Below, piece by piece: positions 1,361-50,808 of a stretch of DNA of 57,072 nucleotides. Below the pieces are notes generated by a model that saw only the letters and a list, made by a program, of their open reading frames with translations, made no database searches and was not told where the DNA came from. This DNA comes from Candidatus Omnitrophota bacterium (lineage in GTDB: Bacteria; Omnitrophota; Gorgyraeia; Zapsychrales; Fredricksoniimonadaceae): the NCBI GenBank assembly GCA_016201795.1, contig JACQCF010000022.1:1-57072 (forward strand). Reading direction: 5' to 3'. The translations under genes and the position numbers were made by a program. Position 1 is the stretch's first letter. Each line of letters opens with the position of its first letter.

Positions 1361-3211
1361 ATGTGCGGCATCATCGGTTACGTTGGCACTCGGGACGCCA
1401 GCCCCATTCTCATCGAGAGTCTTAAAAAACTTGAATACCGCGGTTACGACTCCAGCGGCATCGGTCTTTTGGACCATCAATCTCATCTGATTGTCCGTAA
1501 ATCCAAAGGCAAAATTAAAAATTTAGAAGAGCTGCTGCGCGCCCGGCCTCTACCGTTTTCAAATATTGGCATTTCTCATACCCGCTGGGCCACCCACGGA
1601 CTGCCTTGCGATGAAAATGCCCATCCGCATACCGACAGCGCCCATCATATCGCCGTGGTGCACAACGGCATTATCGAAAACTACGCCGAACTTAGAGAAA
1701 AGCTTAAAAAGCAGGGCTGCCGTTTCCTCTCGCAGACAGACACCGAGGTGATCGCGCATTTGATTTCCGTTTTGTATAAAGGCGATTTGAAACTAGCGGT
1801 GCAGAAGGCGATGGCCCGGCTGAAAGGCGCTTTTGCCATCGGGGTCATTAGCAAAGACCATCCGGATATGCTCATCGCCGCGCGCGTGGGCTCACCTTTG
1901 ATTATCGGGCTGGGTGACAAAGAAAATTACATTGCCTCCGATGTCCCGGCGATTTTGGACCGCACCCGTCGGGTGATTTATCTTAAAGACGGGCAAATGG
2001 CTGTTTTGAGTAAAGGGAGGGTGGAGGTTTTTACGTTCGACGGTAAGAAGGTGAGATTGAAGGTTGATACGGTTTCTTTTACCGTCGGCTCCGCGCAAAA
2101 AGAGGGCTATGATCATTTCATGCTTAAAGAAATTCACGAACAGCCCGCCGTGATTGCGGCGATGCTCAAAACCTGCCTGCCGGCAGGCAGGGCCGCCCAT
2201 CAAAGCGGCAAACTCAAATTAGAAGGCCTGACAATTTCCGATAAAGCTTTAGCTTCCATAAAGAAGATTACGGTGGTTGCTTGCGGTACTGCGTATCACG
2301 CGGGTCTGGTCGGTAAATATGTCCTTGAGGCTTTGGCGCGTTTAAGCGTTGAGGTCGATACCTCCAGCGAGTTTCGTTACCGCAACGCGATCATCGACAA
2401 ACACACCCTGATGGTAGCGGTCAGCCAGTCGGGCGAGACGGCCGATACCTTAGCCGCGGTGCGCGAGGCCAGGGCCAAGGGCGCTAAAGTTATTTCTATT
2501 TGCAATGTCATCGGCTCATCTTTAACCCGAGAATCCGACGGGGTTTTGTACACGCATGCCGGCCCGGAAATCGGGGTGGCCTCCACAAAAGCTTACACGG
2601 CACAACTAATGATGTTTTATTTGCTGAGTTTGAAGCTGGCTCAGGTACGTCATAGCGTACCTGTGCGTCAACAGAGGAAACTGATCAAAGATTTGCAGAG
2701 CATCCCTAAACTTTACAGAGAGGTTTTGAAGACAAAGACGACGATAGTCAAAATTGCCCAGGCCAATTCCCATTTTGGCTGTTTTCTTTATCTGGGCCGC
2801 AATATCAATTATCCAACCGCCCTCGAGGGGGCTTTGAAACTTAAAGAAATTTCTTATATTCCCGCCGAGGGTTATGCCGCCGGAGAAATGAAACACGGGC
2901 CCATTGCGCTCATTGACGAATACCGCGCCGTTATCTGCATCGCGGTGCGCTCGCACGTGTATGAGAAGATGATTTCCAATATTCAAGAAATCCGTGCGCG
3001 CAAAGGTAATGTGATTGTCGTGGCCACCCGGGGCGACCGCCAAATCGCGCCTCATGCGGATTACGTAATTGAAGTTCCCTTCGTCGATGAATTGTTATCG
3101 CCGCTTCTGACGGTGATTCCGCTGCAGCTCATCGCTTATTACATCGCGGTCAAGCGCGGCAATGATGTGGACCAGCCGCGCAACTTGGCTAAGTCGGTAA
3201 CGGTCGAATGA
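1361..3211 (+). CDS. glmS: Glutamine--fructose-6-phosphate aminotransferase (isomerizing)
   Basis: N-terminal MCGIIG (catalytic Cys after Met removal), HTRWATHG, SQSGET, C-terminal PRNLAKSVTVE; true start is ATG 1361. Confidence 0.97.
   Translation: MCGIIGYVGTRDASPILIESLKKLEYRGYDSSGIGLLDHQSHLIVRKSKGKIKNLEELLRARPLPFSNIGISHTRWATHGLPCDENAHPHTDSAHHIAVVHNGIIENYAELREKLKKQGCRFLSQTDTEVIAHLISVLYKGDLKLAVQKAMARLKGAFAIGVISKDHPDMLIAARVGSPLIIGLGDKENYIASDVPAILDRTRRVIYLKDGQMAVLSKGRVEVFTFDGKKVRLKVDTVSFTVGSAQKEGYDHFMLKEIHEQPAVIAAMLKTCLPAGRAAHQSGKLKLEGLTISDKALASIKKITVVACGTAYHAGLVGKYVLEALARLSVEVDTSSEFRYRNAIIDKHTLMVAVSQSGETADTLAAVREARAKGAKVISICNVIGSSLTRESDGVLYTHAGPEIGVASTKAYTAQLMMFYLLSLKLAQVRHSVPVRQQRKLIKDLQSIPKLYREVLKTKTTIVKIAQANSHFGCFLYLGRNINYPTALEGALKLKEISYIPAEGYAAGEMKHGPIALIDEYRAVICIAVRSHVYEKMISNIQEIRARKGNVIVVATRGDRQIAPHADYVIEVPFVDELLSPLLTVIPLQLIAYYIAVKRGNDVDQPRNLAKSVTVE
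2172..2191. repeat. Perfect 20-bp palindrome inside glmS
   Basis: cctgcctgcc|ggcaggcagg, read in frame as (T)CLPAGR. Confidence 0.85.
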
Positions 3212-5489: not shown

Positions 5490-5570
5490 GTGTCATTGCG
5501 AAGGAGCGAAAGCGACTGAAGCAATCCTTTAAAAGATTGCTTCGCTCCCTACGGTCGCTCGCAATGACAC
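5490..5570. repeat. Palindromic MITE/RPE-like element, copy 1 (intergenic)
   Basis: 12-bp terminal inverted repeat gtgtcattgcga/tcgcaatgacac and inner gaagcaatc/gattgcttc stem. Confidence 0.9.
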
Positions 5571-6970: not shown

Positions 6971-7033
6971 TTTTATGGTAAGCGGGACCCCGCCTACCAT
7001 AAAAGACTATTAGATTGGCGGGGAACTCCCGCC
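6971..7033. repeat. Two intergenic hairpins after tRNA-Arg
   Basis: ttttatggta/taccataaaa 10-bp stem with inner gcgg/ccgc (6971-7004); ggcggg-gaact-cccgcc (7017-7033). Confidence 0.6.
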
Positions 7034-11140: not shown

Positions 11141-11215
11141 GGGGTCGTGGTGTAGCCTGGTTAACATGTCAGCTTGTCAAGCTGAAGATCGCGAGTTCAA
11201 ATCTCGTCGGCCCCG
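11141..11215 (+). tRNA. tRNA-Asp(GTC)
   Basis: Acceptor GGGGTCG/CGGCCCC, anticodon arm TCAGC-TTGTCAA-GCTGA, T arm GCGAG-TTCAAAT-CTCGT. Confidence 0.95.
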
Positions 11216-11231
11216 TTTAGATTTTCGACAC

Positions 11232-12950
11232 TTATGGAACATAAGTGTCAGAAAATCTTAATCCCGAGTCATGCTCAGGATTTTTTGTGACGAGGGACCT
11301 TTTAAAAATAATCACCCCATGATTATTCGCCCAGCCGGGTTCGGCTTGCCAGTTACCCCCGTAATGATAGATGGGTCTGAAATTCTGCAGGATGTACTGA
11401 TAGAGGAGCGGGCAATAGGTTTTGCCGAAAACTCCTAAGCCGATTTCGTGGGAAGCGATGCGGTTGGAAACCAAAATATAATTGACCTTGTTTTTCTCAA
11501 GTTCTCGAATAACGGAGATTTCCTGCTGGGGCGGAATTTTGATGTGATCAAAAAAGATGAGCTGCCTGGTAGGGCTGGGGCGTGCGGTGAGGTAATAATA
11601 CAGGCAGTCATAGGGCAGGGCAAAAAAGAGCTCATCTTTTTGAAGGTTTTGGTTCAAGTAGGCCGTCACGGTATTGACGGTGTTCACCCATGCTTTTTCG
11701 TTGCCCACATAAATTTGTCCGCGGGGCATGTTAAGGAATTTATCAGGAGTACAAGAATTTTTAAGGACGACAAATGCGATGATGGTCCAGATCGTCAAGA
11801 GTCCAATCCAAATGCCGCCAATCGTGTAACGCAGCCATCGAGGCGCAAAGGCCACGGCTGTTGAAATCATCAAGAAACTAAAAAATAAACCAAACGGCAT
11901 AGACCAAAATGTGCGGTACCAAACTCCGCTCACGACAAATTCGTGGAAGTTAAGCACAAAAAAAGACCATAGGATCATCTGCGCCAGCCAAAACTTTCGA
12001 CGGTGTTCATTAAATTTTTTCGAAAAAGAAAGAACGAATCCAGCCACCGTGGAGCCGTGAATGATCGGATGAGTCAGGAAATTTAAAATCACCACCACGC
12101 TTATCCATAAGACCAAAGGGTTAAGGAAAACCGATGGCCGTCTTAAAAGCGGAGGTATTAAATTTTTAAGATTAAGCCAGTGATGATCAAACGTCAGCCA
12201 GTGCTGCATGAGATAATAGGGAATGGTTTCCCAGGGGGTTCTGTGATGCGGCTGATCGTCGCCGAAATAGGCCAGACACTGGTGAACTTCATAGCTGGTT
12301 AAATCTTTAAGTAAAAAGCCATAAAGGGCAAGCCACAGCACGGGCACCATCAGGATGCCGCAGACATAAAAAGATTTTTTTTTGGTCATATCACTGGTGG
12401 CAATGCCCAAAAGAGTGACCATTAAAGCGGTAATACCGAAATTAATTTTAATAAGCCCGATGATAAAACAGCAGGCCAATGCCCAAAATCCCAGCCGCAA
12501 TTTTTTTTCGTCGATATACCTTAAGAGAAGCCAGAAAACCGCCAGGGTCAGGGTGAGTGCGCCGATATGATTGTAGGTGAAGAAGAAGTCCTGCTGCGTC
12601 TGCAAAAAGTAATAGGAAGCTAAAAACGCCCAGGACGCAGGCATGAGGACACCAGCGGCCAAATAAAAGAAGACACCGCCGAGAATATTAAGGATGAATT
12701 TTCCCAGCAAGATGCTGGTGATTTTAAAGCCGAAGATCAAATAAAACAGGCCGTAATAATACGGCATCAGCGGCCCATAGACCCACCAGATATCTTTGTA
12801 AATAAGTTTGCCGTGCAAGACCTGTTCAAACGTGTAAAGATCGCGGCCGTGATCACCCTGGGCAAGATTGTCCTGGAAGCCCAGATGCGGTCCGCCGAAG
12901 AGGATGGCGGCAAAAACAGTTAGCAGGAGAAAGGTTTTTTTAGAAGACAT
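11232..12950 (-). CDS. Polytopic membrane glycosyltransferase (GT-C, ArnT/PMT-like)
   Basis: More than 10 hydrophobic segments; first loop DHGRDLY...G.LIYKDIWWVYGPL typical of GT-C membrane transferases; soluble C-terminal domain. Confidence 0.7.
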   Translation of the reverse strand: MSSKKTFLLLTVFAAILFGGPHLGFQDNLAQGDHGRDLYTFEQVLHGKLIYKDIWWVYGPLMPYYYGLFYLIFGFKITSILLGKFILNILGGVFFYLAAGVLMPASWAFLASYYFLQTQQDFFFTYNHIGALTLTLAVFWLLLRYIDEKKLRLGFWALACCFIIGLIKINFGITALMVTLLGIATSDMTKKKSFYVCGILMVPVLWLALYGFLLKDLTSYEVHQCLAYFGDDQPHHRTPWETIPYYLMQHWLTFDHHWLNLKNLIPPLLRRPSVFLNPLVLWISVVVILNFLTHPIIHGSTVAGFVLSFSKKFNEHRRKFWLAQMILWSFFVLNFHEFVVSGVWYRTFWSMPFGLFFSFLMISTAVAFAPRWLRYTIGGIWIGLLTIWTIIAFVVLKNSCTPDKFLNMPRGQIYVGNEKAWVNTVNTVTAYLNQNLQKDELFFALPYDCLYYYLTARPSPTRQLIFFDHIKIPPQQEISVIRELEKNKVNYILVSNRIASHEIGLGVFGKTYCPLLYQYILQNFRPIYHYGGNWQAEPGWANNHGVIIFKRSLVTKNPEHDSGLRFSDTYVP

Positions 12951-13880: not shown

Positions 13881-14804
13881 GTGAGAAAGCCCGATGCTTT
13901 GCTGGCCCAGAAGTCTCTTTTTGAAAAATACCTCAATTGTCAAACGCATCAGTTGTCCGCGTTTCATTTTTCTTCCATTTTTCTCTGGCAGGACTTTTTT
14001 GATTTCGAGTTTGAGACTGTTCAAGAGTCTCTGTGCGTTTACGCGCATCAAAAGGACGGATGCTTTTTATATTTGCCGCCGTTAGCCCCGCCAGAGGCGG
14101 GGTTAGCCAAGTTATGGCAACACTCGGTGGTGGAGGATTGTTTTTCCAAAATGAATAAAATCAATCCTCAAGTAGCACGTATTGAAAATATCGAGCAGCG
14201 CCAGTCGGATCTTCTCGATGGTAAATTTAAAACCTATCCCAAAACGCAGGAATATGTGTATCGCAAAGAGGATTTGATTGATCTTAAAGGCCACGCGTAT
14301 AAAAGCCAGAGGCATGATATTCATCATTTTCAATTACAACATCAGGTTTTGTTTCGCCCTTACGAGCCTGGGGATTTCAAAACGTGTTTGGACCTTTATG
14401 AGCGTTGGGCCCAAAGGCGCCATGACAAGCATGATGATCCTATTTATCGCCATATGCTCGAGGAAAACAGACTCGTGCATGAGCTGGCACTTACTTACCG
14501 TGAGGCACTGGGATTGGTGGGATATGTGGTTGAGGCCCACCAAAAGATCGTTGCATATTCTTTCGGATATTCATTGAATTCGCAGACTTTTTGCGTATTA
14601 TTAGAGATAACGGATGTGGCGCTTACAGGTTTAAGTGCTTTTATTTTCAATCATTTTTGTGCAGAGGAGACTTTAAGGCCGTATACATTCATTAACACGA
14701 TGGATGATTTTGGGTTGCCTTATGTGGCCGCTTCCAAGCAGGCGTATCATCCAGTCCAAAAGCCTGTTTCGTATACCATAACTCAAGAGCTTCTTCTTCA
14801 ATGA
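13881..14804 (+). CDS. DUF2156 / MprF-C-terminal-like GNAT-fold protein
   Basis: EYVYRKEDLIDLKGHAYKSQR and INTMDDFGLP..AASKQAYHP resemble DUF2156 motifs (YxYxxxxLxxLxGxxYxxKR; NxxxDxGxxxLxxxKxSYxP). Confidence 0.8.
   Translation: MRKPDALLAQKSLFEKYLNCQTHQLSAFHFSSIFLWQDFFDFEFETVQESLCVYAHQKDGCFLYLPPLAPPEAGLAKLWQHSVVEDCFSKMNKINPQVARIENIEQRQSDLLDGKFKTYPKTQEYVYRKEDLIDLKGHAYKSQRHDIHHFQLQHQVLFRPYEPGDFKTCLDLYERWAQRRHDKHDDPIYRHMLEENRLVHELALTYREALGLVGYVVEAHQKIVAYSFGYSLNSQTFCVLLEITDVALTGLSAFIFNHFCAEETLRPYTFINTMDDFGLPYVAASKQAYHPVQKPVSYTITQELLLQ
14081..14108. repeat. Micro-palindrome flanked by 7-bp direct repeats inside the DUF2156 gene
   Basis: gttagcc-ccgccagaggcggg-gttagcc, period 21 nt, in frame (LAPPEAGLA). 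Confidence 0.8.
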
Positions 14805-15428: not shown

Positions 15429-15469
15429 CCCTCCCGCCATGGCGGGATCGGGCGAATTAATCCCGAGGG
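15429..15469. repeat. Nested palindromes in the intergenic gap
   Basis: Perfect 16-bp tcccgccatggcggga (15432-15447) interrupts the left arm of a ccctcggg/cccgaggg hairpin. Confidence 0.75.
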
Positions 15470-15510
15470 GTATGTTATAATAACATAGTAGTTTCCGAGG
15501 GATTACCATC

Positions 15511-16815
15511 ATGAATATTTTGACACATACCATATCTTTTAGCGACGATCCCATGAGTCTTTTGGATATTTTTAAAGACGAGCCACATGTTTTTTTCTTG
15601 GACAGCAGTTTGTCTGACACTTGCGACGGGCGTTTTTCGTACTTTGGCTTTGCGCCTTTTGAGACGATCAAGGCCCAAAATTTCGGCCAGCTAAGAAAAG
15701 CTCTGAAGCCTTACCAGGGGCTTAAAAGTCCGTTGTCTTTTCCCGCCGGAGCGGTGGGCTATATCAGCTATGACGGGGCTTTATGGTTCGGTCTCTACGA
15801 GGGCCTTTTGTGCGTGGATCATCACAAACAGACATTAACGATCACTTCAACCGGTTTGCCTTACCGCAACTTGCAACGTCAAAAACAAGCGGCCCGTCAG
15901 AAAATAGATTACATTCTCTATAAATTGCAAAATCGTCGTGAGGGCCTTGGCCGATTAAAACCTTTGCATCAAAAACTGGTCATTAAAAGTAACACCACTC
16001 TTGGGCAGTATGTGGCTTCTGTTAAGAGGGTTTTAAAGCATATTCACGACGGGGATATTTATCAGATCAATTTATCGCATCGGCTTGAAGCCGCCATCAG
16101 GAATTGGCGGCAGTATGTGCATCCGGCCGGGGTGTACCAGCACCTGCGCCGTCTGTCCCCATCGCCCTTGAGTGCTTATTTGGATGATGGACAAACGGTT
16201 ATTTTAAGTTCTTCGCCGGAGCGATTCTTAAAATTAAGGGACGGTGTGGCCCAGGTACGGCCGATGAAGGGGACCAGGCCCCGGGGCAAGGCACCGCGGG
16301 AAGATCAACGAAACAGGCAGGAGCTCATGGATAGCGCCAAAGAAAAGGCTGAACTTTTAATGGTCACTGATTTGGAGCGCAATGATTTAGGCCGGGTCTG
16401 TGGTTATGGCAGTGTCAGGGTCAAGGCCATGCGGACTATAGAAGAGTATACCACTGTGTTTCAGGCCACATCGACGGTGGAAGGCCTCTTGCGCAAAGAT
16501 TGCGATCAGTTTGATTTATTAGAAAGCACATTCCCCAGCGGCTCGGTCACCGGTTGTCCCAAGATAGAAGCCATGAAGATCATCCGCCGTCTGGAAAAAG
16601 CTCCCCGCGGTTTGTACACAGGTGCTTTAGGTTATATCAGCTTCGGCGGGGATATGGATTTTAATGTGCTCATACGCACGTTATTTTTAGAGAAAGATAA
16701 AATTTTTTTTTACGTCGGAAGCGGTATCGTGGCTGATTCGAATCCGCAGGATGAATATGAAGAGACCTTAATTAAGGCCGAAGCTATGATTAAGGCTCTT
16801 AAAATGTCATTGTGA
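15511..16815 (+). CDS. pabB: Aminodeoxychorismate synthase component I
   Basis: GDIYQINLS, SSSPERFL, PMKGTRPRG, ELLMVTDLERND, FPSGSVTGCPK; adjacent to a class IV aminotransferase (trpE-like alternative not excluded). Confidence 0.85.
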   Translation: MNILTHTISFSDDPMSLLDIFKDEPHVFFLDSSLSDTCDGRFSYFGFAPFETIKAQNFGQLRKALKPYQGLKSPLSFPAGAVGYISYDGALWFGLYEGLLCVDHHKQTLTITSTGLPYRNLQRQKQAARQKIDYILYKLQNRREGLGRLKPLHQKLVIKSNTTLGQYVASVKRVLKHIHDGDIYQINLSHRLEAAIRNWRQYVHPAGVYQHLRRLSPSPLSAYLDDGQTVILSSSPERFLKLRDGVAQVRPMKGTRPRGKAPREDQRNRQELMDSAKEKAELLMVTDLERNDLGRVCGYGSVRVKAMRTIEEYTTVFQATSTVEGLLRKDCDQFDLLESTFPSGSVTGCPKIEAMKIIRRLEKAPRGLYTGALGYISFGGDMDFNVLIRTLFLEKDKIFFYVGSGIVADSNPQDEYEETLIKAEAMIKALKMSL

Positions 16816-17585
16816 GTCTGCCTCCGACAGGGAATGTTTTTATGACGAAGCAATCTCCCGTTGTTTTTCTCGATGATCATTTTATTAAACCCGATGATGA
16901 TGTGCTGGCGTCGTTAACGCCGGGGCATCGCCGGCTGCACGGTGTTTTTGAGACCATGAAGTTCGAGGGGGGACGAATTCTTTTTCTTAAGGAGCATTTA
17001 ACGCGGCTTTTTAAGGGTCTTAAGGCGCTTCAACTCTCCCGTACCCCATCGGTGGCAAGAATATCTCGTATCATTCGTTTGAGTAATGGCCGCCACCGTT
17101 TTGTCCGCGCGCGCTTGCGTCTTATGGTTTGGCAAGAAAAGAAGTATATGCATTGGGCGCTGGTGACGAGGCCCTATGAGCTACCCAAGAAGAAAGTTTT
17201 CCGCGTCACTTTCATCAAAACTCAGAGGCTAGCCTCAGCACGTTTAGCTAATGTGAAATCTTTGGACTATGGACTTTTTGCCAGAGCTTTTCAGCAGGCT
17301 CAAAGACAAGGCTTTGATGAAGCCCTGCTGATCAATGCTCGAGGTTATATTTTTGAAGCCAGCCGCGCCAATATTTTCTGGGTTAAAAAAGGAAGGCTTT
17401 ACACACCGCCTTTATCCTCGGGATGTCTGAACGGCATTATGCGTCAGCAGGTGATGAAGTATGCCCGTCAATTAAAAATTCCTTTTGAGCAAAAGAATTT
17501 AACCATCAAGGCCTTTCAAGAAGCGGACACGGTTTTTTTAACCAATTCCCTCATCGGCATTAAACCTGTGAAATCCCGCATTTAG
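16812..17585 (+). CDS. pabC: Class IV aminotransferase, probable 4-amino-4-deoxychorismate lyase
   Basis: GVFETM, HLTRL, KSLDY, EASRANIF, L.GIMR, TNSL; start may be the downstream MTKQ ATG. Confidence 0.75.
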   Translation: MSLPPTGNVFMTKQSPVVFLDDHFIKPDDDVLASLTPGHRRLHGVFETMKFEGGRILFLKEHLTRLFKGLKALQLSRTPSVARISRIIRLSNGRHRFVRARLRLMVWQEKKYMHWALVTRPYELPKKKVFRVTFIKTQRLASARLANVKSLDYGLFARAFQQAQRQGFDEALLINARGYIFEASRANIFWVKKGRLYTPPLSSGCLNGIMRQQVMKYARQLKIPFEQKNLTIKAFQEADTVFLTNSLIGIKPVKSRI

Positions 17586-17653: not shown

Positions 17654-18616
17654 ATGCGACGAACAGGGTCTATTTTTATTTTGACCTTTTTGGGCTGGCA
17701 GGTAAGTTCTCTGGCGCAGATGGATTTGTCGGTGGCTGCCAGTTTGTCCCCTGCGGTGGTGGGCCAATCGATTGGACAAAGGACCGCAGAGGCGACATCC
17801 GATGACACGCCTCAGTGGCGATTGACGTTGGGCGTGATTGAAGCCGAGGCCCGGGTATTGATGAGAAAAAATGCCCGGCTGGTGGCGGAAAATGATTTTT
17901 TGACTCGAGAATATAACAAATTACAGGATGAGCTCAGCTGGCGGCAGAAAAAAAACAAAGCCTTGCCAGAATCGTCGAAGAAAAGCAATGGTCCGATGGA
18001 TCAGCAGAGGCGTATCGATGAATTGAGGGATCAAATAAACACCAAAAAAGTTGAGGTTTCCCGACTAAAACAAGAATTGGCCAAACTGCCAAAAAAAGGA
18101 TCTCATAGGCAGCAGCAGGCTTCCTTGGAGCCCGACCAGCAGTTGAATCAGCAGTTAAAGCAAGAGAAAGATCAAGAGGATTTTCTGCAGAAGCAATTGG
18201 CGGATTTAAAACAAGATCAGCCTATCGTAGGGGAAGGCCAGTTTAAATCTTTAAAGGCTCAATTAAAGGCGTTGCAAAAGCAAAAAGAACAGTTACAGAA
18301 GAAAGTTGCCGTCGGTGACAGTCAGACCAAGGGGGGGCTCTATGGTCAGCTGAGTTTAAAGAAGATGGTGCTGGAAGACAAGATTCAGAAATTTGAAGTG
18401 CAGTTAACTCATCTGAGAAAAGCGTCGGCGTTGAAGTTCTCCTGGAGCCAGGAGAGAAAACAATTGATTCACCAGATGACTCAAGCTGATAGCCACAACA
18501 TACGGCTGCACCGGCAAGTTGAACACTTGCGCGAAAATATTGCGCTTTTAAAAAATCAGGTGGCCATCCTGGAGTATCGAAAAGATTCCAACGATGGCTC
18601 TGACCATACAAAATAG
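17654..18616 (+). CDS. Secreted coiled-coil protein of unknown function
   Basis: Signal-peptide-like N-terminus followed by long K/Q/E/L-rich heptad sequence. Confidence 0.7.
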   Translation: MRRTGSIFILTFLGWQVSSLAQMDLSVAASLSPAVVGQSIGQRTAEATSDDTPQWRLTLGVIEAEARVLMRKNARLVAENDFLTREYNKLQDELSWRQKKNKALPESSKKSNGPMDQQRRIDELRDQINTKKVEVSRLKQELAKLPKKGSHRQQQASLEPDQQLNQQLKQEKDQEDFLQKQLADLKQDQPIVGEGQFKSLKAQLKALQKQKEQLQKKVAVGDSQTKGGLYGQLSLKKMVLEDKIQKFEVQLTHLRKASALKFSWSQERKQLIHQMTQADSHNIRLHRQVEHLRENIALLKNQVAILEYRKDSNDGSDHTK

Positions 18617-38831: not shown

Positions 38832-41610
38832 ATGAATTCTAAGACCTTTTATCAATATCACAGCGACGGAGTGACTTTCAGTTCCCCGCAGGCCGCAGGC
38901 ATTAAAATTATTTACGCGCCCCTATGCGGCGCGGATGCCAACGGCATTAAATCCGCCATCAGCCCCTCTTTAAGCGGGGATATCAAAATTGACAAATACC
39001 ATTACCTCACCAAACCCGTCTCGAGGGAAGATTTGCGTTATCCTGTACGGGAATTTTTTGTCTTTATTAAAGGTAAAGGGGGTTTTTTCATTGGCTCAAG
39101 AAAGTACGCCGGATTCAAGCAAGGTGACCATCGGGCCTTTGTGGCATAAGCTGGAACGCACGCACAAGGACGCTGGCATTGAACTGGGCGCAGTGAATTT
39201 TGTGCCTTGCAGCAATGAAACCGTTGAGCTCATGAAGGTGAGTGTCAAAAATATTTCCCGGCGTTCCATCAGATTTACTCCGACGGCAGCCATTCCTATT
39301 TTTGGGCGCTCTTTGGCCAACAAGCATGACCATGAACATGTCACGGCTTTATTAAATCGCCTGGAACAGGTCAAGGACGGCGTGCTCCTCAAACCCACGA
39401 TGGCCTTTAACGAAGAAGGGCATAAGGACGCCAGCACGGTTTATTTTGTTTTTGGCCGTCAGGACAAGACCACGGCTTTGGCGGGGACTTTTCCGACGAC
39501 AGAAAGTTTCTATGGCGAGGGTGGCTCTCTGATGAGTCCTGAGGCGGTTATGAAAAATCTTGAGCCTGCGATCTTGCCCCCATCAGAGCTCCAGGGCAAA
39601 GAAGCCATCGGGGCTTTGCGTTTTAAAGAAATCACCTTAAAGCCGCATACAAGCGCGGATTATATCATCGCCGTTGGTATGGCTTCCCACCATCAGCAGG
39701 CTAAAGATATCTTCAGCCGTTTTGACAGCCTTGAGGCTTTTGAGCGCGCCCTTTCGGCCAACAAGAAGTTCTGGCTGGATAAAATATCATCGATCCAATT
39801 TAGAAGCCACGATGAGGATTTCAACTGCTGGATGCGCTGGGTGACGCTGCAGCCTATTCTTCGTCGGATTTTTGGCTGTTCGTTTTTGCCGGATCATGAT
39901 TACGGCAAAGGCGGCAAAGGCTGGCGGGATCTCTGGCAGGATTTGCTTTCTTTAATTCTCATTGAACCGCATCTGGTGCAGGAACATCTGCTCAACAATT
40001 GCGCCGGCATTCGCATCGACGGTAGCAACGCCACCATTATCGGCACCAGGCCCACAGAATTTATGGCGGATCGCAATGCTATCACCCGCGTATGGATGGA
40101 TCACGGCGCCTGGCCTCTGTTAACGGTTTTGCTTTACATCGACCAGACCGGCGATTTCGATCTTCTACTACAGAAGCAGACTTATTTTAAAGACCCGCAG
40201 CTCTCCCGCACCATGGATAAGGACCTGGGATGGATCAGTCAGTACGGCAATCATCTGTTGGATAAAAAAGGCCAAGTCTATGAAGGCACACTCCTCGAGC
40301 ATCTTCTGGTGCAGAATCTGGTGCAATTTTTTAATGTGGGCGAGCATAATATCACCCGTCTGGAAAGCGCCGACTGGAATGACGGGCTGGATATGGCTTT
40401 TGCCCGCGGCGAGAGCGTGGCGTTTATGTCCTTTTACGGCGGCAATCTTTTGAAGCTGGCGGATTTGATGGAGACTTTAGGCAAACTGAAAGGGCAAACC
40501 ACCATCCGTTTGGCCAAAGAGCTTTTGATTTTGCTGGATACCTTAAACGCTGGGCCAGTCAATTACGATCACGCCAAAGACAAACGTGATCATCTTTTCG
40601 GTAAATATTTTCATAGCGTCCAGCCGGTTTTAAGCGGGGAGGTGGTGGAGGCGGCTATCAGCGAGGTGGCTCGCGATTTGCGCCAGAAAGGCCACTGGAT
40701 GTTCGGTCAAATCCGCCATCAGGAAAAAATCACCGTCGAGCATGACGGCCAAAAATATCAATGGTTTAACGGCTACTATGACAATAAAGGCGAACGCGTC
40801 GATGGTATCAAGGACAATGTGGTGCGCATGACCTTGACCGGCCAGGTCTTTGCCCTCATGAGCGGCATGGCCGATTCCAAAGAAATCGAAACCGTGATTA
40901 TAAGCGTCGATCATTTTTTAAAAGACAAGAAGCTCGGCGGCTATCGGCTCAATACGGATTTTGGGCTCAAGCATTATTTGGATTTAGGCCGCGCGTTTAG
41001 TTTTGCTTTCGGTACCAAGGAAAACGGTGCGTTTTTTAATCACATGACGGTTATGTACGCTTACGCGCTCTACACGCGCGGCTTTGGCCGTCAGGGTTAT
41101 GAAGTTTTACAGTCGATTTACCGCATGGCCCTCGATACTTGGCGCAGTAAAATTTATCCCGGGATTCCGGAATATTTCGACTCCGATGGGCGCGGGATGT
41201 ATCATTATTTGACCGGCTCCGCCAGCTGGCTGGTGTTAACCGGACTGACTCAAGCCTTTGGCGTACGCGGTCTAGACGGTGATTTGCTGTTAGCCCCGCA
41301 GTTAGTCAAAGAAGAATTCAATAGCAAAGCCCTTGCCAGTGTCATCTGTCCGTTTGCCGGGCGGCGCGTGACGGTGGAATATCATAATCCCAAAAAACTT
41401 GATGCCGGCCAGTACAGCATACAGCAAGTAAGTCTTAACGGGTGTCCGATCGTCGGTAAATTGCTTAACAAAGCCTCTGTCAAAATTGAACGCTCCTTGA
41501 TTACCGCCACCCCAGAGGCGCACATCCGCGTGGTGCTGGATGCTTACAAAGTCAATCCCGCCAAAGGCAGAACTCAAGATAAGATGGACCTCGTCATGGT
41601 GGGAGGTTAA
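38832..41610 (+). pseudogene. GH94-like glycoside phosphorylase interrupted by a single frameshift near 39078-39088
   Basis: ORF 38832 and ORF 38989 join across G5T6; RDLWQD, DHG.WP, ADWNDGLD, ENG..F.H, YLTGSASW motifs; real pseudogene, slippage or assembly error cannot be told apart. Confidence 0.7.
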
Positions 41611-42700: not shown

Positions 42701-42816
42701 GTGTCATTGCGAACACAGACATAGTGTCATTACGAGGAACGAAGTGACGAAGTAATCTTTTTAACATATCAAAAGATTGCTTCGCTTAAAACGAACAGCG
42801 ACGCTCGCAATGACAC
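42701..42816. repeat. Palindromic MITE/RPE-like element, copy 2 (intergenic, duplicated left end)
   Basis: gtgtcattgcgaa (42701) and gtgtcattacgag (42724), inner gaagtaatc/gattgcttc, right end tcgcaatgacac. Confidence 0.88.
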
Positions 42817-43959: not shown

Positions 43960-46900
43960 CTTTCTTTTGCGTAATTCCGCCGTAAGCTCAGCGCAAAGTT
44001 TTATTGACCGGCTGAAGCCCAAAGTGCAGATTAACATTCATCCGGAGGCGCCGCTTCCTTCCATCGGGCTGGTCAAAAAATTGGCTCTTCGCGCTGCGGC
44101 AATTTGCGCTTTAGAAGGACAGATCAGCAGTCTTTCCGACGATCAGCTCAAAGCCAAAACCGCGCAGTTTAAAGCCGTCATCGATAAAGCCATTGCCTTT
44201 AAAAAAAGTGAGTATGAAAAAGAGCTGGGTAACTATCGCTCGGCATCCTCTGCCCAGGAACGCGAAAACAGCGCTCTGGAAATTAAACGTTTGGGCAAAG
44301 AGCTTTTTGAGGCTAAACGAAAAGCTCTCGATGAAATTTTAAACGAAGCCTTTGGGGTTGTGCGCGAGACGGGCAAAAGAACTCTTAACATGCGCCATTT
44401 CGATGGACAGTTGGTCGGCGGTATGATTTTGCATCAGGGCGGTATCGCGGAAATGACCACCGGTGAAGGCAAAACTTTGGTCGCCACCCTGCCGGCGTAT
44501 CTGAATGCCTTAACGGGCGACGGTGTGCATGTCATTACCGTCAACGATTATTTGGCCAACCGCGATCGTCACTGGATGGGGCCGATTTATGAATTCTTAG
44601 GACTTACCGTCGGATGCATCCAGCACGACGTAGGTCCTCGTGAACGCCAGGCGGCGTATGGGGCTGACATCACGTACGGCACCAACAATGAATTCGGGTT
44701 CGATTATCTGCGCGATAACATGGTCTCTTTAAAAGAAGAGATGGTGCAGCGCGGCCATCATTTTGCCATCGTTGACGAAGTTGACAGTATTCTCGTTGAC
44801 GAAGCCCGTACCCCTTTGATTATTTCAGGTCCGGCGGAAGAATCGACGGACAAATATTACAAAGCCTATCAAATTTCTAGAGAACTCAAAGGACGACGGG
44901 TCACCGAGGCCCAGGAAATCGAAGCCAAACATCGCCAAGAAAATTTAGGCGAAGGTTATGATTATCTGGCGGATGAAAAGGCCAAGTCCATTTCTCTGAC
45001 GGAATCCGGCGAGGAAAAAGCGTCGGGCATGTTCGGAGTGGCGCATTTGCATGATATCGAAACGGCTGAATACCGTCATCATGTCCTGTGCGCTTTGCGC
45101 GCCAAAGAATTTTTCAAGAGGGATGTGGACTACGTGGTCAAAGACGGCAAGGTTATTATCGTAGATGAATTCACCGGACGCATGATGCCCGGCCGGCGCT
45201 GGTCGGACGGTTTGCATCAGGCGGTGGAGGCCAAAGAAGGCATTAAAATCGAGCGTGAGAACCAGACACTGGCCACCATCACTTTCCAGAATTATTTTCG
45301 CATGTACAACAAGCTCGCCGGGATGACCGGTACCGCCTACACCGAGGCTAATGAATTCAAACAAATTTATAATCTCGACTGCGCGGTGGTTCCCACCAAC
45401 CAGCCGCTGATTCGCAAAAATTATCCCGACTGCATTTATAAAACCGCAGGGGAGAAATACAATGCCGTGGTGGCTGAAATTACCGATTGCCATACACGCG
45501 GTCAGCCGGTTTTGGTCGGTACTATCTCTATTGAAAAATCCGAACTTATATCGTCGCTGTTAAAGCAAAAAGGTATCCCGCATCAGGTCCTGAACGCCAA
45601 ATTCCATGAAATGGAAGCACATATCATTACCCAGGCCGGCCGTTTTAAAGCGGTGACCATTGCTACCAACATGGCGGGGCGCGGTACGGACATTGTTTTA
45701 GGGGGCAACGCCCAGTATTTAGCCAGAGCTTTGGTTTTGGAGAGAAACAAAGACGCTACGGTCGAAGAACGCGAGGAATTGGTTAAAACCTTTATCGATC
45801 AGTTTCGCCAGCAGACCAAAAAGGAACACGATCAGGTCATTGCGGTCGGCGGTTTGCGGGTCATCGGTACCGAGCGGCATGAATCGCGGCGTATCGATAA
45901 TCAGTTGCGCGGACGCTGCGGCCGTCAGGGAGATCCCGGTGAGTCGCGCTTCTATGTCTCTTTACAGGACGATCTCATGCGGCTTTTTGCCTCGGACCGC
46001 ATCATGTTTGTCATGAACAAACTCGGCATGGAAGAAGGCCAGGTCATTGAATCGCGCATGGTCACGGGGGCGCTGGAGGTGGCGCAGAAGCGCGTGGAAA
46101 ATTACAACTTTGAAATCCGCAAACAATTGCTCGACTATGACAACGTGATGAACAAACAGCGCGAGGTCATTTACAGCCTGCGCCGTTCCATCCTCGAGGG
46201 AGAAAACCTTAAAGATATCGTGCAGGATGCGGTTTTAGCGTATGGGGATGAAATCATTGACGCGCATTTTGCCTTGGCTAAGGAGGGCAACGCTTCTTTC
46301 GATACTCTGGCCGTGGAGTTTTTATCTAAATTCAGTTTGGACTTAAATCCCGTCAAAGAGCAACTGAAAGATTTAACGGCCGCGGAGGTTAAATCCATCG
46401 TCGCTGACCAGTTGATGAAAGCTTATGAGATCAAGGAAGTCCGGATGACGCCGGAGCTTTTGCGCCGCATGGAGCGCATGGTGCTGCTGCATACTATAGA
46501 CAGCAAATGGAAAGATCATTTGTATGTCATGGATCAGGTCAAAGACGGTATCGGCCTGCGCGCGCTGGGACAGAGAGACCCTCTGGTGGAATACAAAAAG
46601 GAAGGGTTTGCTCTTTTTAAAATTATGTACACCAGTATCAATCAGGAGATGGCTTCCCTGATGTTTAAGCTTGAGCCTATGACGCAGCCCCAGAGGCCCC
46701 GTTCGGTCTTTAGCAGTATTCCTCAGCAGGAAGTGCATCAGGAGTTTTCCGGCCCCGTCTTTGGCGGTGCAGGCCTACCTGCCGGACAGGCAGGCATTCA
46801 AACCCCTTTGGGAAGCCCAGAACAAAGCCCCGTGTTTGCGTCGAGGGAGCCATTGCAGCCAAGCGTTCAGGCATCTAAGGTGGTACCTTTAGCGTCGGTG

Positions 46901-47971: not shown

Positions 47972-48615
47972 TTTCCCCCGAAGAAAGGTTATTTGATGCC
48001 ATTCAGGAAGGCAAGAAATACCCTGCGGGGAAAAAAATAAATCCTGCGCAGGGCTTAAAGAGTTTTTTAGAGGGCTTGACCTTCAAGTGGCGGCCAAGTG
48101 ATTTGGCCGCGGGCGGGCAGAGGATCAATCTGGCAGCCGTCACTAAAATTCTTTTTATTATTTTGGTCGCGCTTATAATGCTGGTATTTTATAATGTTAC
48201 CAGACAGAGGCCGAGTTTATCAAAATTAACTGCTGGCGTTTCTACGGGTGGCGCTCAGTTGCCCGGCCCTAAACCCATCGAGGAGTTTAATCCGGTGACC
48301 GTTTATTTAGACGAGGCAAAAAAAAGAGATCTCTTTCATCCGATTCCGCCTCCTGCACCGCCTACGCCGGTGGTGTCCCTTAAGGAGAAAGTCAAGCCGG
48401 CGGCGACTGCGGTTGACCTTCGCGCGCTCATCAAAAATTTAACTTTGTCCGGTATCTATCAGGGTCAGGATGTTGAGGTGATGGTTGAGGATAAAACCAC
48501 CAAGAAAACATATTTTTTAAAACAGGGGGATGAAGTCAAGGGAATGAAAGTCAAGGCCATCCTCAAAGACAGAGTCATCCTGCAGTTAGGCACACAGGAA
48601 ATCGAGCTTTTATGA
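47968..48615 (+). CDS. GspC/PilP-like inner-membrane assembly protein
   Basis: Single TM, Pro-rich linker, RDLF, L.L.GI.....VMVED......FLKQGD.V.G..V..I. Confidence 0.65.
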   Translation: MISPEERLFDAIQEGKKYPAGKKINPAQGLKSFLEGLTFKWRPSDLAAGGQRINLAAVTKILFIILVALIMLVFYNVTRQRPSLSKLTAGVSTGGAQLPGPKPIEEFNPVTVYLDEAKKRDLFHPIPPPAPPTPVVSLKEKVKPAATAVDLRALIKNLTLSGIYQGQDVEVMVEDKTTKKTYFLKQGDEVKGMKVKAILKDRVILQLGTQEIELL

Positions 48616-50234
48616 AAAGCGTGTCAAATAAATCATGTGTCATTGCGAACGCAGTGAAGCAATCTTTTAAAAGATCGCCACGTCCCCTTCGGGGACTCGC
48701 GATGACGCTTATTTTTTGTCTGTTTTTCTTAAGTGGTCTTTCGTTTGGTTTTGCCCAACAGAAACCGCAGCCGATACCCATTCAGGAAGGCCTCACTCAG
48801 CGCATCGCTTTGGATTTGCGCGACATGGATATTATCGACGCGTTAAAATTTTTGGCTATGAAGGCCGGGATTAATATCATCGCCGCCAAAGACGTGTCCG
48901 GGCGGGTGTCGCTTTTCTTAAAAGGGGTGACCACACAGGATGCCCTGACCATCATCCTTCAGGCCAACAGCCTGGCCTATGAAATCCGCCGGGATGTGCT
49001 TTACGTGATGACCGAGAAAGAATACAAAGCGATTCATGGCAGTAATTTCAGCGACACGCGCAAAGTGAAGATTTTAAATTTAAAATATGCCAAACCCGAA
49101 GCGGTGTTTAAGGCGGTGGATACGCTCAAAAGCGACATCGGCAAAGTGATGGTGGATGAAGAATCCGGCGCCGTGATTTTAATGGACACCCCCGAGAGAA
49201 TAAGCGAAATGGAAAAAGCCGTTGCTGATTTAGACCAGGTAACCCTGACCAAGACATTTATTCTGCAGTACGCCAAGGCCAAAGACCTGGAACCTATTCT
49301 GGCCAAAAGGCTGGATGCCAAGAAAACCGGAACCGTGGCGGTGGATGAGCGCAGCGACCAGTTAATCGTGACCGCGTTCCCCGACCGCATGCAGGAAATC
49401 GAAGATCTCATCAGAAGCATGGACAAAAAGACCAAACAGGTCTTGATCGAAGCCCGCATTCTCAAGGTTATCCTCAATGATAATTTCAGCATGGGAGTGG
49501 ATTGGAACAGGGTCTGGACCGAAGCCAAGCTCAAAGGCCTGAATTTTACGGGAGTTTTCCCGCTGGCACCTGCGCCCACCAATTTTCTTAGAATCGGCGC
49601 GGGCAATGACGCGGCCACCGGCTTCAATTACTCTGCTGTTGTCCAGATACTGAAAGAATTCGGCGAGACACACAACCTTTCCTCGCCGAGCATTGCGGTT
49701 ATCAACGGCCAGGAGGCCAAGATGCTGGTGGGTACCACCCAGCCCTACGTGACGACCACGGTCGCCGCCGGCACCGTAACCGCCACCACCGCCGCCCAGG
49801 TGTCTTTTGTGGATGTGGGTGTGCAGTTGACCTTGACGCCGTTTATCAATAATGACGGTTATGTGACCATAAAAATCAAGCCGGAGATTTCCACTGTTGA
49901 CCAACCTTTTACCTATTCACTCGCCCCAGGGGTAAACAACACGGTTCCTATAGTGTCGAAAACCACGGCGGAGACGACCGTCATGATTAAAGACGGCAGG
50001 ACCGTTATTATCGGCGGTTTAAGAAAAGATGACAAAGTAAAGACGGTCAATAAAGTACCTGTGTTGGGAGATATTCCTTTTTTGGGCGTGGCGTTTAGAA
50101 ATACGGTCAATACCATGGAAAAAACGGAAGTGGTGGTTTTTATCACGCCGCATATCATCAGCGGTGGTGATGACAGTGGTGCAACGGTCGATGCGAGTCA
50201 GCTTAAGCCTAGAGGCATGAGATCCTATGAGTAA
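48612..50234 (+). CDS. Secretin (GspD/PilQ family)
   Basis: N0-like domain, two Secretin_N repeats, QVLIEARI, P......GQEA, DVGVQL.LTP, GGL, KVP.LGDIP.LG..F. Confidence 0.92.
   Translation: MKSVSNKSCVIANAVKQSFKRSPRPLRGLAMTLIFCLFFLSGLSFGFAQQKPQPIPIQEGLTQRIALDLRDMDIIDALKFLAMKAGINIIAAKDVSGRVSLFLKGVTTQDALTIILQANSLAYEIRRDVLYVMTEKEYKAIHGSNFSDTRKVKILNLKYAKPEAVFKAVDTLKSDIGKVMVDEESGAVILMDTPERISEMEKAVADLDQVTLTKTFILQYAKAKDLEPILAKRLDAKKTGTVAVDERSDQLIVTAFPDRMQEIEDLIRSMDKKTKQVLIEARILKVILNDNFSMGVDWNRVWTEAKLKGLNFTGVFPLAPAPTNFLRIGAGNDAATGFNYSAVVQILKEFGETHNLSSPSIAVINGQEAKMLVGTTQPYVTTTVAAGTVTATTAAQVSFVDVGVQLTLTPFINNDGYVTIKIKPEISTVDQPFTYSLAPGVNNTVPIVSKTTAETTVMIKDGRTVIIGGLRKDDKVKTVNKVPVLGDIPFLGVAFRNTVNTMEKTEVVVFITPHIISGGDDSGATVDASQLKPRGMRSYE
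48638..48706. repeat. Palindromic MITE/RPE-like element, copy 3, inside the secretin 5' end
   Basis: tgtcattgcga...gaagcaatc...gatcgccac...tcgcgatgac; read as VIANAVKQSFKRSPRPLRGLAMT. Confidence 0.85.
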
Positions 50235-50808
50235 GTTCTCCTTATGTCATTGCGAGCGATCCCGCCAAGGCGGGAGAGCGAAGCAATCTTTTAGACCTGA
50301 AAAGATTGCTTCGTCGTCGCTGAAAAACACTCCTTCTCGCAATGACACCAAACTATTATTTTTTTTAGTATTTTTTGTTGGCTGGGCAGCACTGGGGGCA
50401 GGCGCGGCTTTGGCCCAAGATGAGCAAAATTCTGATGACAAGTCTGAAATAGTTTCCTGTCAACTGCTGACGACCGAAAACGCCCAGTTAAAAGACACCA
50501 TTAACCAGCTTGGCCGCGAGCGCAACGGCCTGCAAAGCAGACTCAAAGAGCTTGCCGACACGCACTATAATCTGGGCGTCATTTTACAGGAGCAGTATAA
50601 GTTTGATGAAGCCCAGAAAGAGTATGAGAAAGTGCTGGAACTGCGCCCGGATGACGCGGATGCGCATTACAATCTGGCTTTGATTTTCGATACGGCCAAA
50701 AATGACCGGAACATGGCCCTGTACCACTATGAAAAATACCTGGAAATAAACCCGCGGGCCGCTGAAGCCCAGGGGGTAAGACAGTCTATCGCAAGGCTGA
50801 GCAAGTAG
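50227..50808 (+). CDS. Secreted coiled-coil / TPR protein
   Basis: Hydrophobic signal region, HYNLG......A...Y..VLEL.P.DA.AHYNLA TPR repeats. Confidence 0.85.
   Translation: MSKFSLCHCERSRQGGRAKQSFRPEKIASSSLKNTPSRNDTKLLFFLVFFVGWAALGAGAALAQDEQNSDDKSEIVSCQLLTTENAQLKDTINQLGRERNGLQSRLKELADTHYNLGVILQEQYKFDEAQKEYEKVLELRPDDADAHYNLALIFDTAKNDRNMALYHYEKYLEINPRAAEAQGVRQSIARLSK
50245..50347. repeat. Palindromic MITE/RPE-like element, copy 4, inside the TPR gene 5' end, with a nested 16-bp palindrome
   Basis: tgtcattgcga...tcgcaatgaca; nested tcccgccaaggcggga flanked by gagcga direct repeats; read as CHCERSRQGGRAKQS...SRND. Confidence 0.88.
50743..50800 (+). repeat. 58-bp direct repeat, copy 1 (3' end of the TPR gene)
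   Basis: 57/58 identical to 51266-51323. Confidence 0.92.

Follow-up and report, generated by a model that had tools for sequence, protein, structure and literature searches.

The DUF2156 gene of a Candidatus Omnitrophota bacterium raises the question of how a very small palindrome, flanked by two copies of a 7-mer, came to lie in frame within a protein-coding sequence. The gene occupies positions 13881..14804 on the forward strand of the 57,072-nucleotide contig JACQCF010000022.1, which was analysed at its full length and is called the window here. According to the list of open reading frames (ORFs), the translation and the match to PF09924, it encodes a 307-aa protein with the DUF2156/LPG_synthase_C domain; PF09924 was found in all 120 homologues listed, and the named ones belong to Candidatus Omnitrophota. 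An earlier note on this DNA had interpreted the locus, referred to below as site 1, as the product of a palindrome of 14-16 nt that moves in trans, duplicates 6-7 bp of its target and adds loops to proteins in frame. Our data indicate that site 1 probably resulted from a recent 21-bp insertion of a dispersed hairpin (family F1), accompanied by a one-off 7-bp duplication of GTTAGCC, into a surface loop of the DUF2156 protein. F1, a second family (F2) and other C/G-rich mini-hairpins are best explained as dispersed, non-autonomous palindromes of Omnitrophota that resemble repetitive extragenic palindromes (REPs) and small dispersed repeats (SDRs).

The sequence at 14081-14108 is gttagcc-ccgccagaggcggg-gttagcc, with a period of 21. 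It consists of a left direct repeat GTTAGCC (14081..14087), the inserted hairpin core CCGCC-AGA-GGCGGG (14088..14101) and a right direct repeat GTTAGCC (14102..14108). Together with the neighbouring bases, the core forms the F1 unit CCCCGCC-AGA-GGCGGGG (14086-14102), which has a 7-bp stem, a 3-nt loop and a predicted DNA folding energy of -9.3 kcal/mol. The region is translated as LYLPPLA-PPEAGLA-KLWQ. The core is missing from 25 orthologues, and exactly 7 codons of site 1 are absent in all 25 of these when aligned (43-84% identity). In L001, the closest orthologue at the DNA level, TTGCCGCC-GTTGGCC-ACC stands opposite GTTAGCC-CCGCCAGAGGCGGG-GTTAGCC of the window, so that the empty site has one copy of the 7-mer with one substitution. 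Because the 25 orthologues do without the 7 residues and L001 has a single-copy site, site 1 is a genuine lineage-specific in-frame insertion. The repeat, its period and the 7 added codons were therefore described correctly at the outset, and the single-copy site by which an insertion was to be recognized is present in L001, where GTTGGCC takes the place of the 28-mer. In the AlphaFold model of the DUF2156 protein (mean predicted local distance difference test score, pLDDT, of 91.5), residues 71-80 are the lowest-scoring internal block, with a value of 68, and sit between a strand (60-63) and a helix (81-94). From this low score and these boundaries, the insertion seems to form a loop that the protein tolerates.

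The same gene has received other hairpins in related genomes. At a different place, the DUF2156 gene of L003 (81% identical) bears an in-frame insertion of 30 bp, which contains CCCCCTCTTTA-A-TAAAGAGGGGG, and no adjacent repeat of more than 3 nt was found for it at period 30. In L098/P0057 (47% identical), a different 15-nt hairpin, TCCCCCATAGGGGGA, is located exactly at the insertion position of the window, after LYLPPL, and has no flanking repeat. This position was thus hit independently by another hairpin in L098/P0057.

The F1 core is not confined to site 1. The pattern CCGCC-N2-4-GGCGG occurs three times in the window (14088, 15434 and 50262) compared to 0.29 expected, and three were not reached in any of 100 shuffles. 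Among Omnitrophota loci totalling 0.85 Mb, 15 copies of CCCGCC-N0-4-GGCGGG were counted versus one for the swapped-arm control, and 3 F1 copies were found in 1.3 Mb of other bacteria, a control set obtained from a GTDB genome scan with GlmS (58% identity or less among the matches listed). The common form of F1 is CCCCGCC-NNN-GGCGGGG, with loops that vary (AGA, AA, AT, TTT, AAC, GTT). The second window copy, TCCCGCCATGGCGGGA (15432..15447), is situated in the spacer that follows the RNase T gene and is not flanked by a repeat. In the distantly related L129, an F1 hairpin likewise lies downstream of the RNase T gene, and the corresponding spacers of L001 and L003 have a different hairpin (ACTTATG..CATAAGT) instead of F1. 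The third copy, TCCCGCC-AA-GGCGGGA (50260..50275), is nested in the left arm of an element resembling a miniature transposable element with inverted repeats (MITE). The recurrence of the core at 15434 that the earlier note reported is thus real, as is the copy with swapped arms, GGCGGG-GAACT-CCCGCC (7017..7033), which has a 5-nt loop and lies downstream of tRNA-Arg.

Several further observations were made on these hairpins. ACTTATG...CATAAGT recurs after tRNA-Asp in the window (11227-11249); it is found at ~1860-1887 in L001 and at ~2365-2395 in L003, with compensatory stem changes between the two. The motif (GAA)TTAATCCCGAG is repeatedly found just after intergenic hairpins, at 15450-15470 and 11255-11268 in the window and at ~12299-12306 in L006. 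In L142 (45-95, 378-461), a tRNA-like gene (ARAGORN: tRNA-Asn gtt, 84 nt) has an F1 hairpin as its anticodon arm, which is 6 nt longer than normal. This gene is homologous to the tRNA-Asp of the window (11141-11215), and its 5' part is duplicated around a small ORF whose sequence resembles that of a GIY-YIG nuclease.

A further in-frame case, beyond the instances that had been noted before, was found in the GlmS gene of the window (1361..3211). This gene contains a perfect 20-nt palindrome, CCTGCCTGCCGGCAGGCAGG (2172..2191), which defines family F2 and coincides with a 7-codon insertion; the CCTGCC-GGCAGG core that had earlier been put forward for scanning proved to be this real dispersed 20-mer. 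GlmS has 616 aa in the window, whereas most of the 120 listed orthologues have 609 aa; the 7 additional residues are located exactly at the palindrome. The DNA of L168 has an uninterrupted GlmS site without the extra 21 nt. In the closest relative, L167, the site has another variant, a +15-nt direct repeat CGCCTG...CGCCTG, of which the window has the inverted version. At another GlmS site, the peptide LPAGRQ, which is F2 read in frame, marks insertions in P0261, P0264 and P0270. In L092, the 20-mer stands at the junction of an aminotransferase gene and the next gene, and it is absent there in the window, L088 and L089. The net gain at this junction is 21 nt, which is most easily explained by the 20 nt and a single compensating nt, and at least 14 of the 20 nt are underivable from the empty-site sequence of the three relatives. 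In L003/L093, F2 is found where another gene begins. IMG/VR contigs (38-68% G+C) contain the exact 20-mer in 35 stretches, several of them with multiple copies, and these 'viral' contigs may include misclassified cellular DNA; the F1 17-mer pattern is also common in viral contigs. No copy of F2 was found in the 1.3-Mb control set. In the flanks of F2, the sole regularity is a purine/pyrimidine preference at -1 and +1, and on F2-rich viral contigs the copies are mostly outside the longest ORFs.

In terms of individual F2 locations, the palindrome lies inside a tRNA variable loop (…CCACGAGG-F2-TCGCCGGTTCGAATCC…) on viral contigs L170 (8616) and L193 (2284), and inside a tRNA D arm (…TAGCTCAGTTGGTA-F2-GAGC…) on viral contig L200 (515). 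One 29.5-kb viral contig (L189, L196, L197) holds six F2 copies, several of which are within longer repeats (…CCGTAG-F2-GGGCGGCACAA… and …CCCCATCCTCGCGGTTT-F2-CGAGGGTGGGTC…). The 9-mer TCTGCCTCC, contained in the F2-like strings TCTGCCTCCGACAGG and CGCCTGTCTGCCTCCCGCCTGCC, is found at the start of the class IV aminotransferase gene of the window (16812-16860) and in the GlmS linker of L167 (~2070-2100). The strings that bear it may be decayed F2 copies.

The window was scanned for perfect hairpins (stem of 5 or more, loop of 4 or fewer) with an immediate 6-nt direct repeat. Two were observed versus 0.04 expected, and both share the CCCGCC/GGCGGG stem. Because none of 100 dinucleotide shuffles reached two, the combination of hairpin and repeat is more than chance. 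In 813 kb of Omnitrophota DNA, four perfect hairpins had 6-nt flanks; three of these were F1, one of them (L141) in a tandem repeat. A constant target-site duplication of 6-7 bp, as the earlier note had proposed, was not observed, since most F1 and F2 copies have no flanking repeat. The adjacent repeat is 3 nt or less in 42 of 45 distinct F2 copies, and the exact repeats of the other three (7, 8 and 14 nt) are all in locally tandem-repetitive DNA. For F1 on viral contigs, the adjacent repeat is 4 nt or less in 124 of 126 copies and at least 6 nt in two, neither of which is a clean duplication; one extends a stem palindromically, and the other lies between GCTCG-type repeats resembling a MITE arm. 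The dated insertions of L003 (30 nt), L098 (15 nt) and L092 (20 nt) have repeats of 0-3 nt. Flanking repeats therefore exceed chance but are exceptional, and their length is not fixed. A 10-nt 'repeat' around an F1 hairpin in L294 was rejected, as GGTTATAACC is itself palindromic and represents a longer stem.

All of the coding insertions are multiples of three (+21, +21, net +21, +30, +15, +18 and +15). The unit lengths, however, are 15, 16, 17 and 20 nt, the non-coding inserts in MITE arms are 17 and 21 nt long, and the F2 case in GlmS may also consist of 20 nt and a compensating +1. Because the unit lengths are mixed and L092 needs a compensating +1, length in multiples of three is not a property of the palindromes, and the reading frame would be kept by selection on intact genes and not by the design of the element. 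The relatives used here are 65-90% identical, a range in which some ancestral junctions are uncertain. When ~30 kb of conserved window genes were compared with relatives, few single-lineage insertions of at least 2 residues were seen, and most were at palindromes or MITE pieces. The exceptions are the segment VQASKVVP in SecA, a 2-residue insert in the 873-residue ORF 38989-41610 (whose orthologue in L004 is a GH94-family gene) and indels in ORF 17654-18616, which is poorly conserved.

The third F1 copy belongs to a different setting, referred to as site 3. The MITE-like inverted-repeat element that contains it (TGTCATTGCGAG...CTCGCAATGACA, 103 bp, 50245..50347) lies in the 5' part of a tetratricopeptide repeat (TPR) ORF (50227..50808) and has a DNA fold of -33.6 kcal/mol (z = -8.3). 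The direct repeat GAGCGA at 50254-50281 does have a period of 22 and is nested in a larger element, as had been stated, but it is not a duplication of a target. The arm without filler is CATTGCGAGCGAAGCGAAGCAATC (L108, L109, L124), and the window copy becomes identical to it when the 17 nt TCCCGCCAAGGCGGGAG are removed. Since GAGCGA on both sides thus belongs to the arm itself, the 6-bp repeat was ruled out as a target-site duplication. Another arm in the window (5535-5566) reads GAGCGA-CCGTAGG-GAGCGA, with a different 7-nt filler, L124 has a 21-nt insert CCTG+CCCCGCCAAAGGCGGGG at the same arm position, and a further mini-hairpin, GTCCCCTTCGGGGAC, is found in the arm of the copy at 48637-48705. 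The arm position is thus a variable slot in which GC hairpins are often present.

The layout of the MITE family is TGTCATTGCGAG ... GAAGCAATC ... GATTGCTTC ... CTCGCAATGACA, and its members occupy short spacers and 5' gene ends. Copies are located at ~5491-5570, 42702-42815, 48637-48705 and 50245-50347 of the window, with a half copy at ~16805-16858, and no target duplication was discernible for the copies in the window. Two annotated starts are overlapped by this family, those of the pilQ/secretin ORF 48612..50234 (48612-48705) and of the TPR ORF (50227-50347). The listed secretin start is probably too far upstream, because translation from an ATG at 48701, which lies within the end of the MITE, would begin with a normal signal peptide (MTLIFCLFFLSG...). 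The MITE in the TPR gene may be translated, because there is no alternative start before the signal peptide; a comparison of the TPR protein with a representative library gave generic TPR proteins only and no orthologue.

The SecA gene was the other stand-alone coding instance initially described. At 46769..46795, in the C-terminal linker, it has a degenerate F2-like hairpin, CCTGCC-GGACA-GGCAGG, with a gcaggc repeat. The repeat and its period of 21 were found as described; the palindrome, however, is imperfect (stem CCTGCC/GGCAGG, 5-nt loop), and the proposed gain of 7 codons is unverifiable in a linker that is rich in G/A/P/Q and differs in length in every orthologue aligned. Because this linker is too variable to define an empty site, the SecA case neither supports nor refutes a transposon-like model. 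Elsewhere in the gene, at residues ~972-979 (~46865-46888), the 8-residue insert VQASKVVP is unique in comparison to the 19 closest orthologues aligned. It has a weak hairpin, AAGGT-GGT-ACCTT, and does not match the repeat families seen.

A classical miniature transposon would be a 14-16-nt element with terminal inverted repeats of 6-7 bp, moved by DDE-type cut-and-paste with a fixed 6-7-bp target-site duplication. This is what the perfect 7-bp repeat of site 1 suggests, as it is single-copy in the orthologue and has a chance probability of ~6e-5, and it would agree with the 7- and 8-nt repeats at two F2 copies (L187, L171) and with the excess of repeat-flanked hairpins over shuffles. The repeat of site 3, however, is native to the MITE arm, and in place of the fixed-length duplication typical of a DDE-type MITE, F1 and F2 have repeats of 3 nt or less in 42/45 F2 copies, of 6 nt or more in only 2/126 viral-contig F1 copies, of 0-3 nt at the dated insertions, and otherwise of unequal length (7, 8, 14 nt) in locally tandem-repetitive DNA. 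No transposase was found among the 10 window ORFs scanned against Pfam. Long terminal inverted repeats and an autonomous insertion sequence (IS) were not seen either, the arms being 6-10 bp long and no larger element being present in 0.85 Mb of related DNA, and we know of no transposase binding end as short as arms of 6-7 bp. Such a transposon is thus quite improbable. The nearly precise excision of Tn10 leaves a target copy, a short palindrome and a target copy, and site 1 has the same layout. It could then be the scar of a larger IS or MITE with CCCGCC...GGCGGG termini and a 7-bp duplication, removed almost precisely by slippage across its inverted ends, and survivors in frame would be selected. 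Since ~0.85 Mb of Omnitrophota DNA showed no larger element with CCCGCC termini, since the abundant MITE ends in TGTCATTGCGAG and not in CCCGCC, and since the same hairpin stands alone at many loci without flanking repeats, there is very little to recommend an excision scar.

Local formation de novo deserves more attention, although as a full account it is unlikely. By replication slippage or template switching (quasi-palindrome formation), the hairpin and the duplication could both have formed in place, and similar palindromes could arise by convergence from common GC-rich codon strings such as CCG-CCG and CTG-CCT-GCC. GCCGCC is directly upstream of the first GTTAGCC at site 1, which allows the product to be described as 9 nt added to a tandem duplication of 12 nt; the GlmS site of L167 bears a direct repeat (+15 nt) in the place of the inverted version found in the window; and the lengths of flanking repeats differ, with tandemly repeated DNA around them. 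Difficulties arise from the presence of the identical F2 20-mer at many unrelated loci, from the 14 or more of 20 nt of the L092 copy that have no source in the empty-site sequence of three relatives, and from F1 stems that are identical at 15 loci with a 15:1 bias in arm order. Fold-back synthesis, moreover, would copy adjacent sequence in inverted form, and the flanks of site 1 differ from that. A search for a local or ectopic template for the loop-containing core GCCAGAGGC gave unrelated matches only. Because arm-like sequences pre-exist near some sites, de novo formation may account for part of the pattern. A reading as chance similarity, coding sequence of low complexity or an artefact of assembly would be the simplest for the SecA site, which is a low-complexity linker of variable length, and all of the sequences do come from metagenome assemblies. 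For site 1 this reading is disfavoured by the shuffle controls and by the clean 7-codon gap in 25 orthologues, and insertions that keep frames and recur in independent assemblies (ENA, JGI, NCBI, Logan) make it scarcely credible for the pattern as a whole.

The insertion of dispersed hairpins is therefore the preferred explanation. The palindromes stand at non-homologous sites and are present or absent between relatives, which upholds part of the claim that the palindrome moves; the enzyme postulated with it has no counterpart among the 10 window ORFs scanned. The palindromes persist at places that can accommodate an additional hairpin or loop, namely in protein loops, linkers, gene ends, MITE arms and tRNA variable loops. 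We infer that they would be copied in as single-stranded hairpins, either by a trans-acting HUH-type enzyme of the kind known from REPs and their associated tyrosine transposases (RAYTs) or from IS200/IS605, or by template switching to an ectopic copy at a replication fork, and that selection would then retain only outcomes that restore the frame. The 7-bp repeat of site 1 does not characterize the family as a whole and may be the by-product of a single event, such as a staggered break or upstream re-priming after a template switch.

Several points weigh against this explanation. In addition to the lack of a transposase in the 10 scanned window ORFs, the arm-like CGCCTGCC probably pre-exists at the GlmS site, although it is seen only in L167, which itself has an insertion, and arm-like sequence beside insertion sites, such as GCCGCC at site 1, is also compatible with local formation de novo. 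The F1 loops differ, which is not expected from simple copying unless the stems are conserved while the loops drift. Of the 126 viral-contig F1 copies, 25 are bordered by a T-rich or A-rich run, which is consistent with terminators; because about a fifth of these copies resemble ordinary terminators, part of the F1 'family' may be convergent stable hairpins. Lastly, the source genome is sampled by one 57-kb contig, which gives no per-genome copy number.

In size, the hairpins are closest to the SDR4-6 repeats of Nostocaceae (cyanobacteria). These are reportedly 21-27 nt long, proposed to be mobile and nested in larger repeats, and they are said to occur occasionally in genes and to have no known enzyme. 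They belong to another phylum and have other sequences, and the elements described here are as short as 15-20 nt. PMC3116915 and PMC5861425 refer to Elhai et al. 2008 (Genome Res 18:1484) for the SDRs. Rickettsia palindromic elements are ~100-150 bp long and restricted to Rickettsia, whereas the insert of site 1 is 21 bp and its host belongs to Omnitrophota; a resemblance in size exists only for the 80-115-bp MITE family (e.g. 50245-50347 in the TPR ORF). As summarized in two later papers, the Rickettsia elements are found in frame in functional protein genes as tolerated extra surface segments (Ogata et al. 2000, via PMC3184786 and PMC3733652).

REPs are 20-40 nt long (PMC3733652), or 21-65 bp in another survey (PMC3184786), and intragenic in-frame REPs with GTAG or CGTC tags and a link to RAYTs have been documented (Di Nocera et al. 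2013, PMC3733652; Bertels & Rainey 2011, PMC3116915). The elements described here are similar to REPs and REPINs (hairpin-forming REP pairs) in that they are short, GC-rich, non-coding, dispersed stem-loops, some of which are wholly inside housekeeping ORFs and read in frame, and in that several families coexist. In contrast to the imperfect palindromes of 20-40 nt, F1 and F2 are 15-22 nt long, and F2 is perfect. The F1 flanks are TTAG (site 1), CCCT, CGAT, CCTG (L124, L102) and others; GTAG is found 3 nt upstream of the copy at 15434, and there is no consistent tag across copies. REP insertion is also not expected to duplicate the target, while site 1 has a 7-bp duplication, and no RAYT (Y1/HUH transposase) was seen among the 10 window ORFs scanned. 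The yeast mitochondrial GC clusters GC42 are longer (30-50 bp), mostly intergenic and flanked by a constant 2-3 nt, AG or ACT (Wu & Hao 2015, PMC4478555). They share with the present hairpins a GC-rich composition in an AT-richer genome, a sporadic presence and absence, short flanking direct repeats, loops that vary more than stems, a tendency to merge or nest, and a mechanism that is likewise unresolved. The unit CCCCGCC-N3-GGCGGGG is, in addition, a common stem of intrinsic terminators; at site 1 it lies inside an ORF and is followed by GTTAGCCAAG with no T run, and the copies at 15434 and in the MITE also have no T run. A literature search found no description of such repeats in Omnitrophota, and a full-text search found no relevant paper containing the F1 or F2 core sequences.

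If these mini-palindromes are mobile, they are at or below the size limit of known mobile DNA, and they would explain short lineage-specific loop insertions in GlmS, SecA and DUF2156 as well as odd extra arms in tRNA genes. A bolder and rather doubtful proposal is that perfect palindromes of 15-22 nt, such as CCTGCCTGCCGGCAGGCAGG, are the smallest self-propagating DNA units known, pasted as hairpins into protein loops, gene junctions, MITE arms and tRNA variable loops across unrelated bacteria and phages by a widely distributed activity, and that housekeeping proteins would generally acquire loop insertions of 5-10 residues from them. Annotation is also affected, through shifted apparent start codons (the PilQ and TPR genes here) and through spurious 'novel' peptide segments such as PPEAG, LPAGRQ and PLTPSLIKRG. 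The pairs of sites with and without a palindrome provide concrete junctions for testing the insertion mechanism.

With regard to the remainder of the window, a comparison with Rfam 15 at the gathering score gave three tRNAs only. A 572-residue ORF on the minus strand (11232-12950), which has no Pfam match, is conserved in L087, L088 and L089 at ~65% identity.

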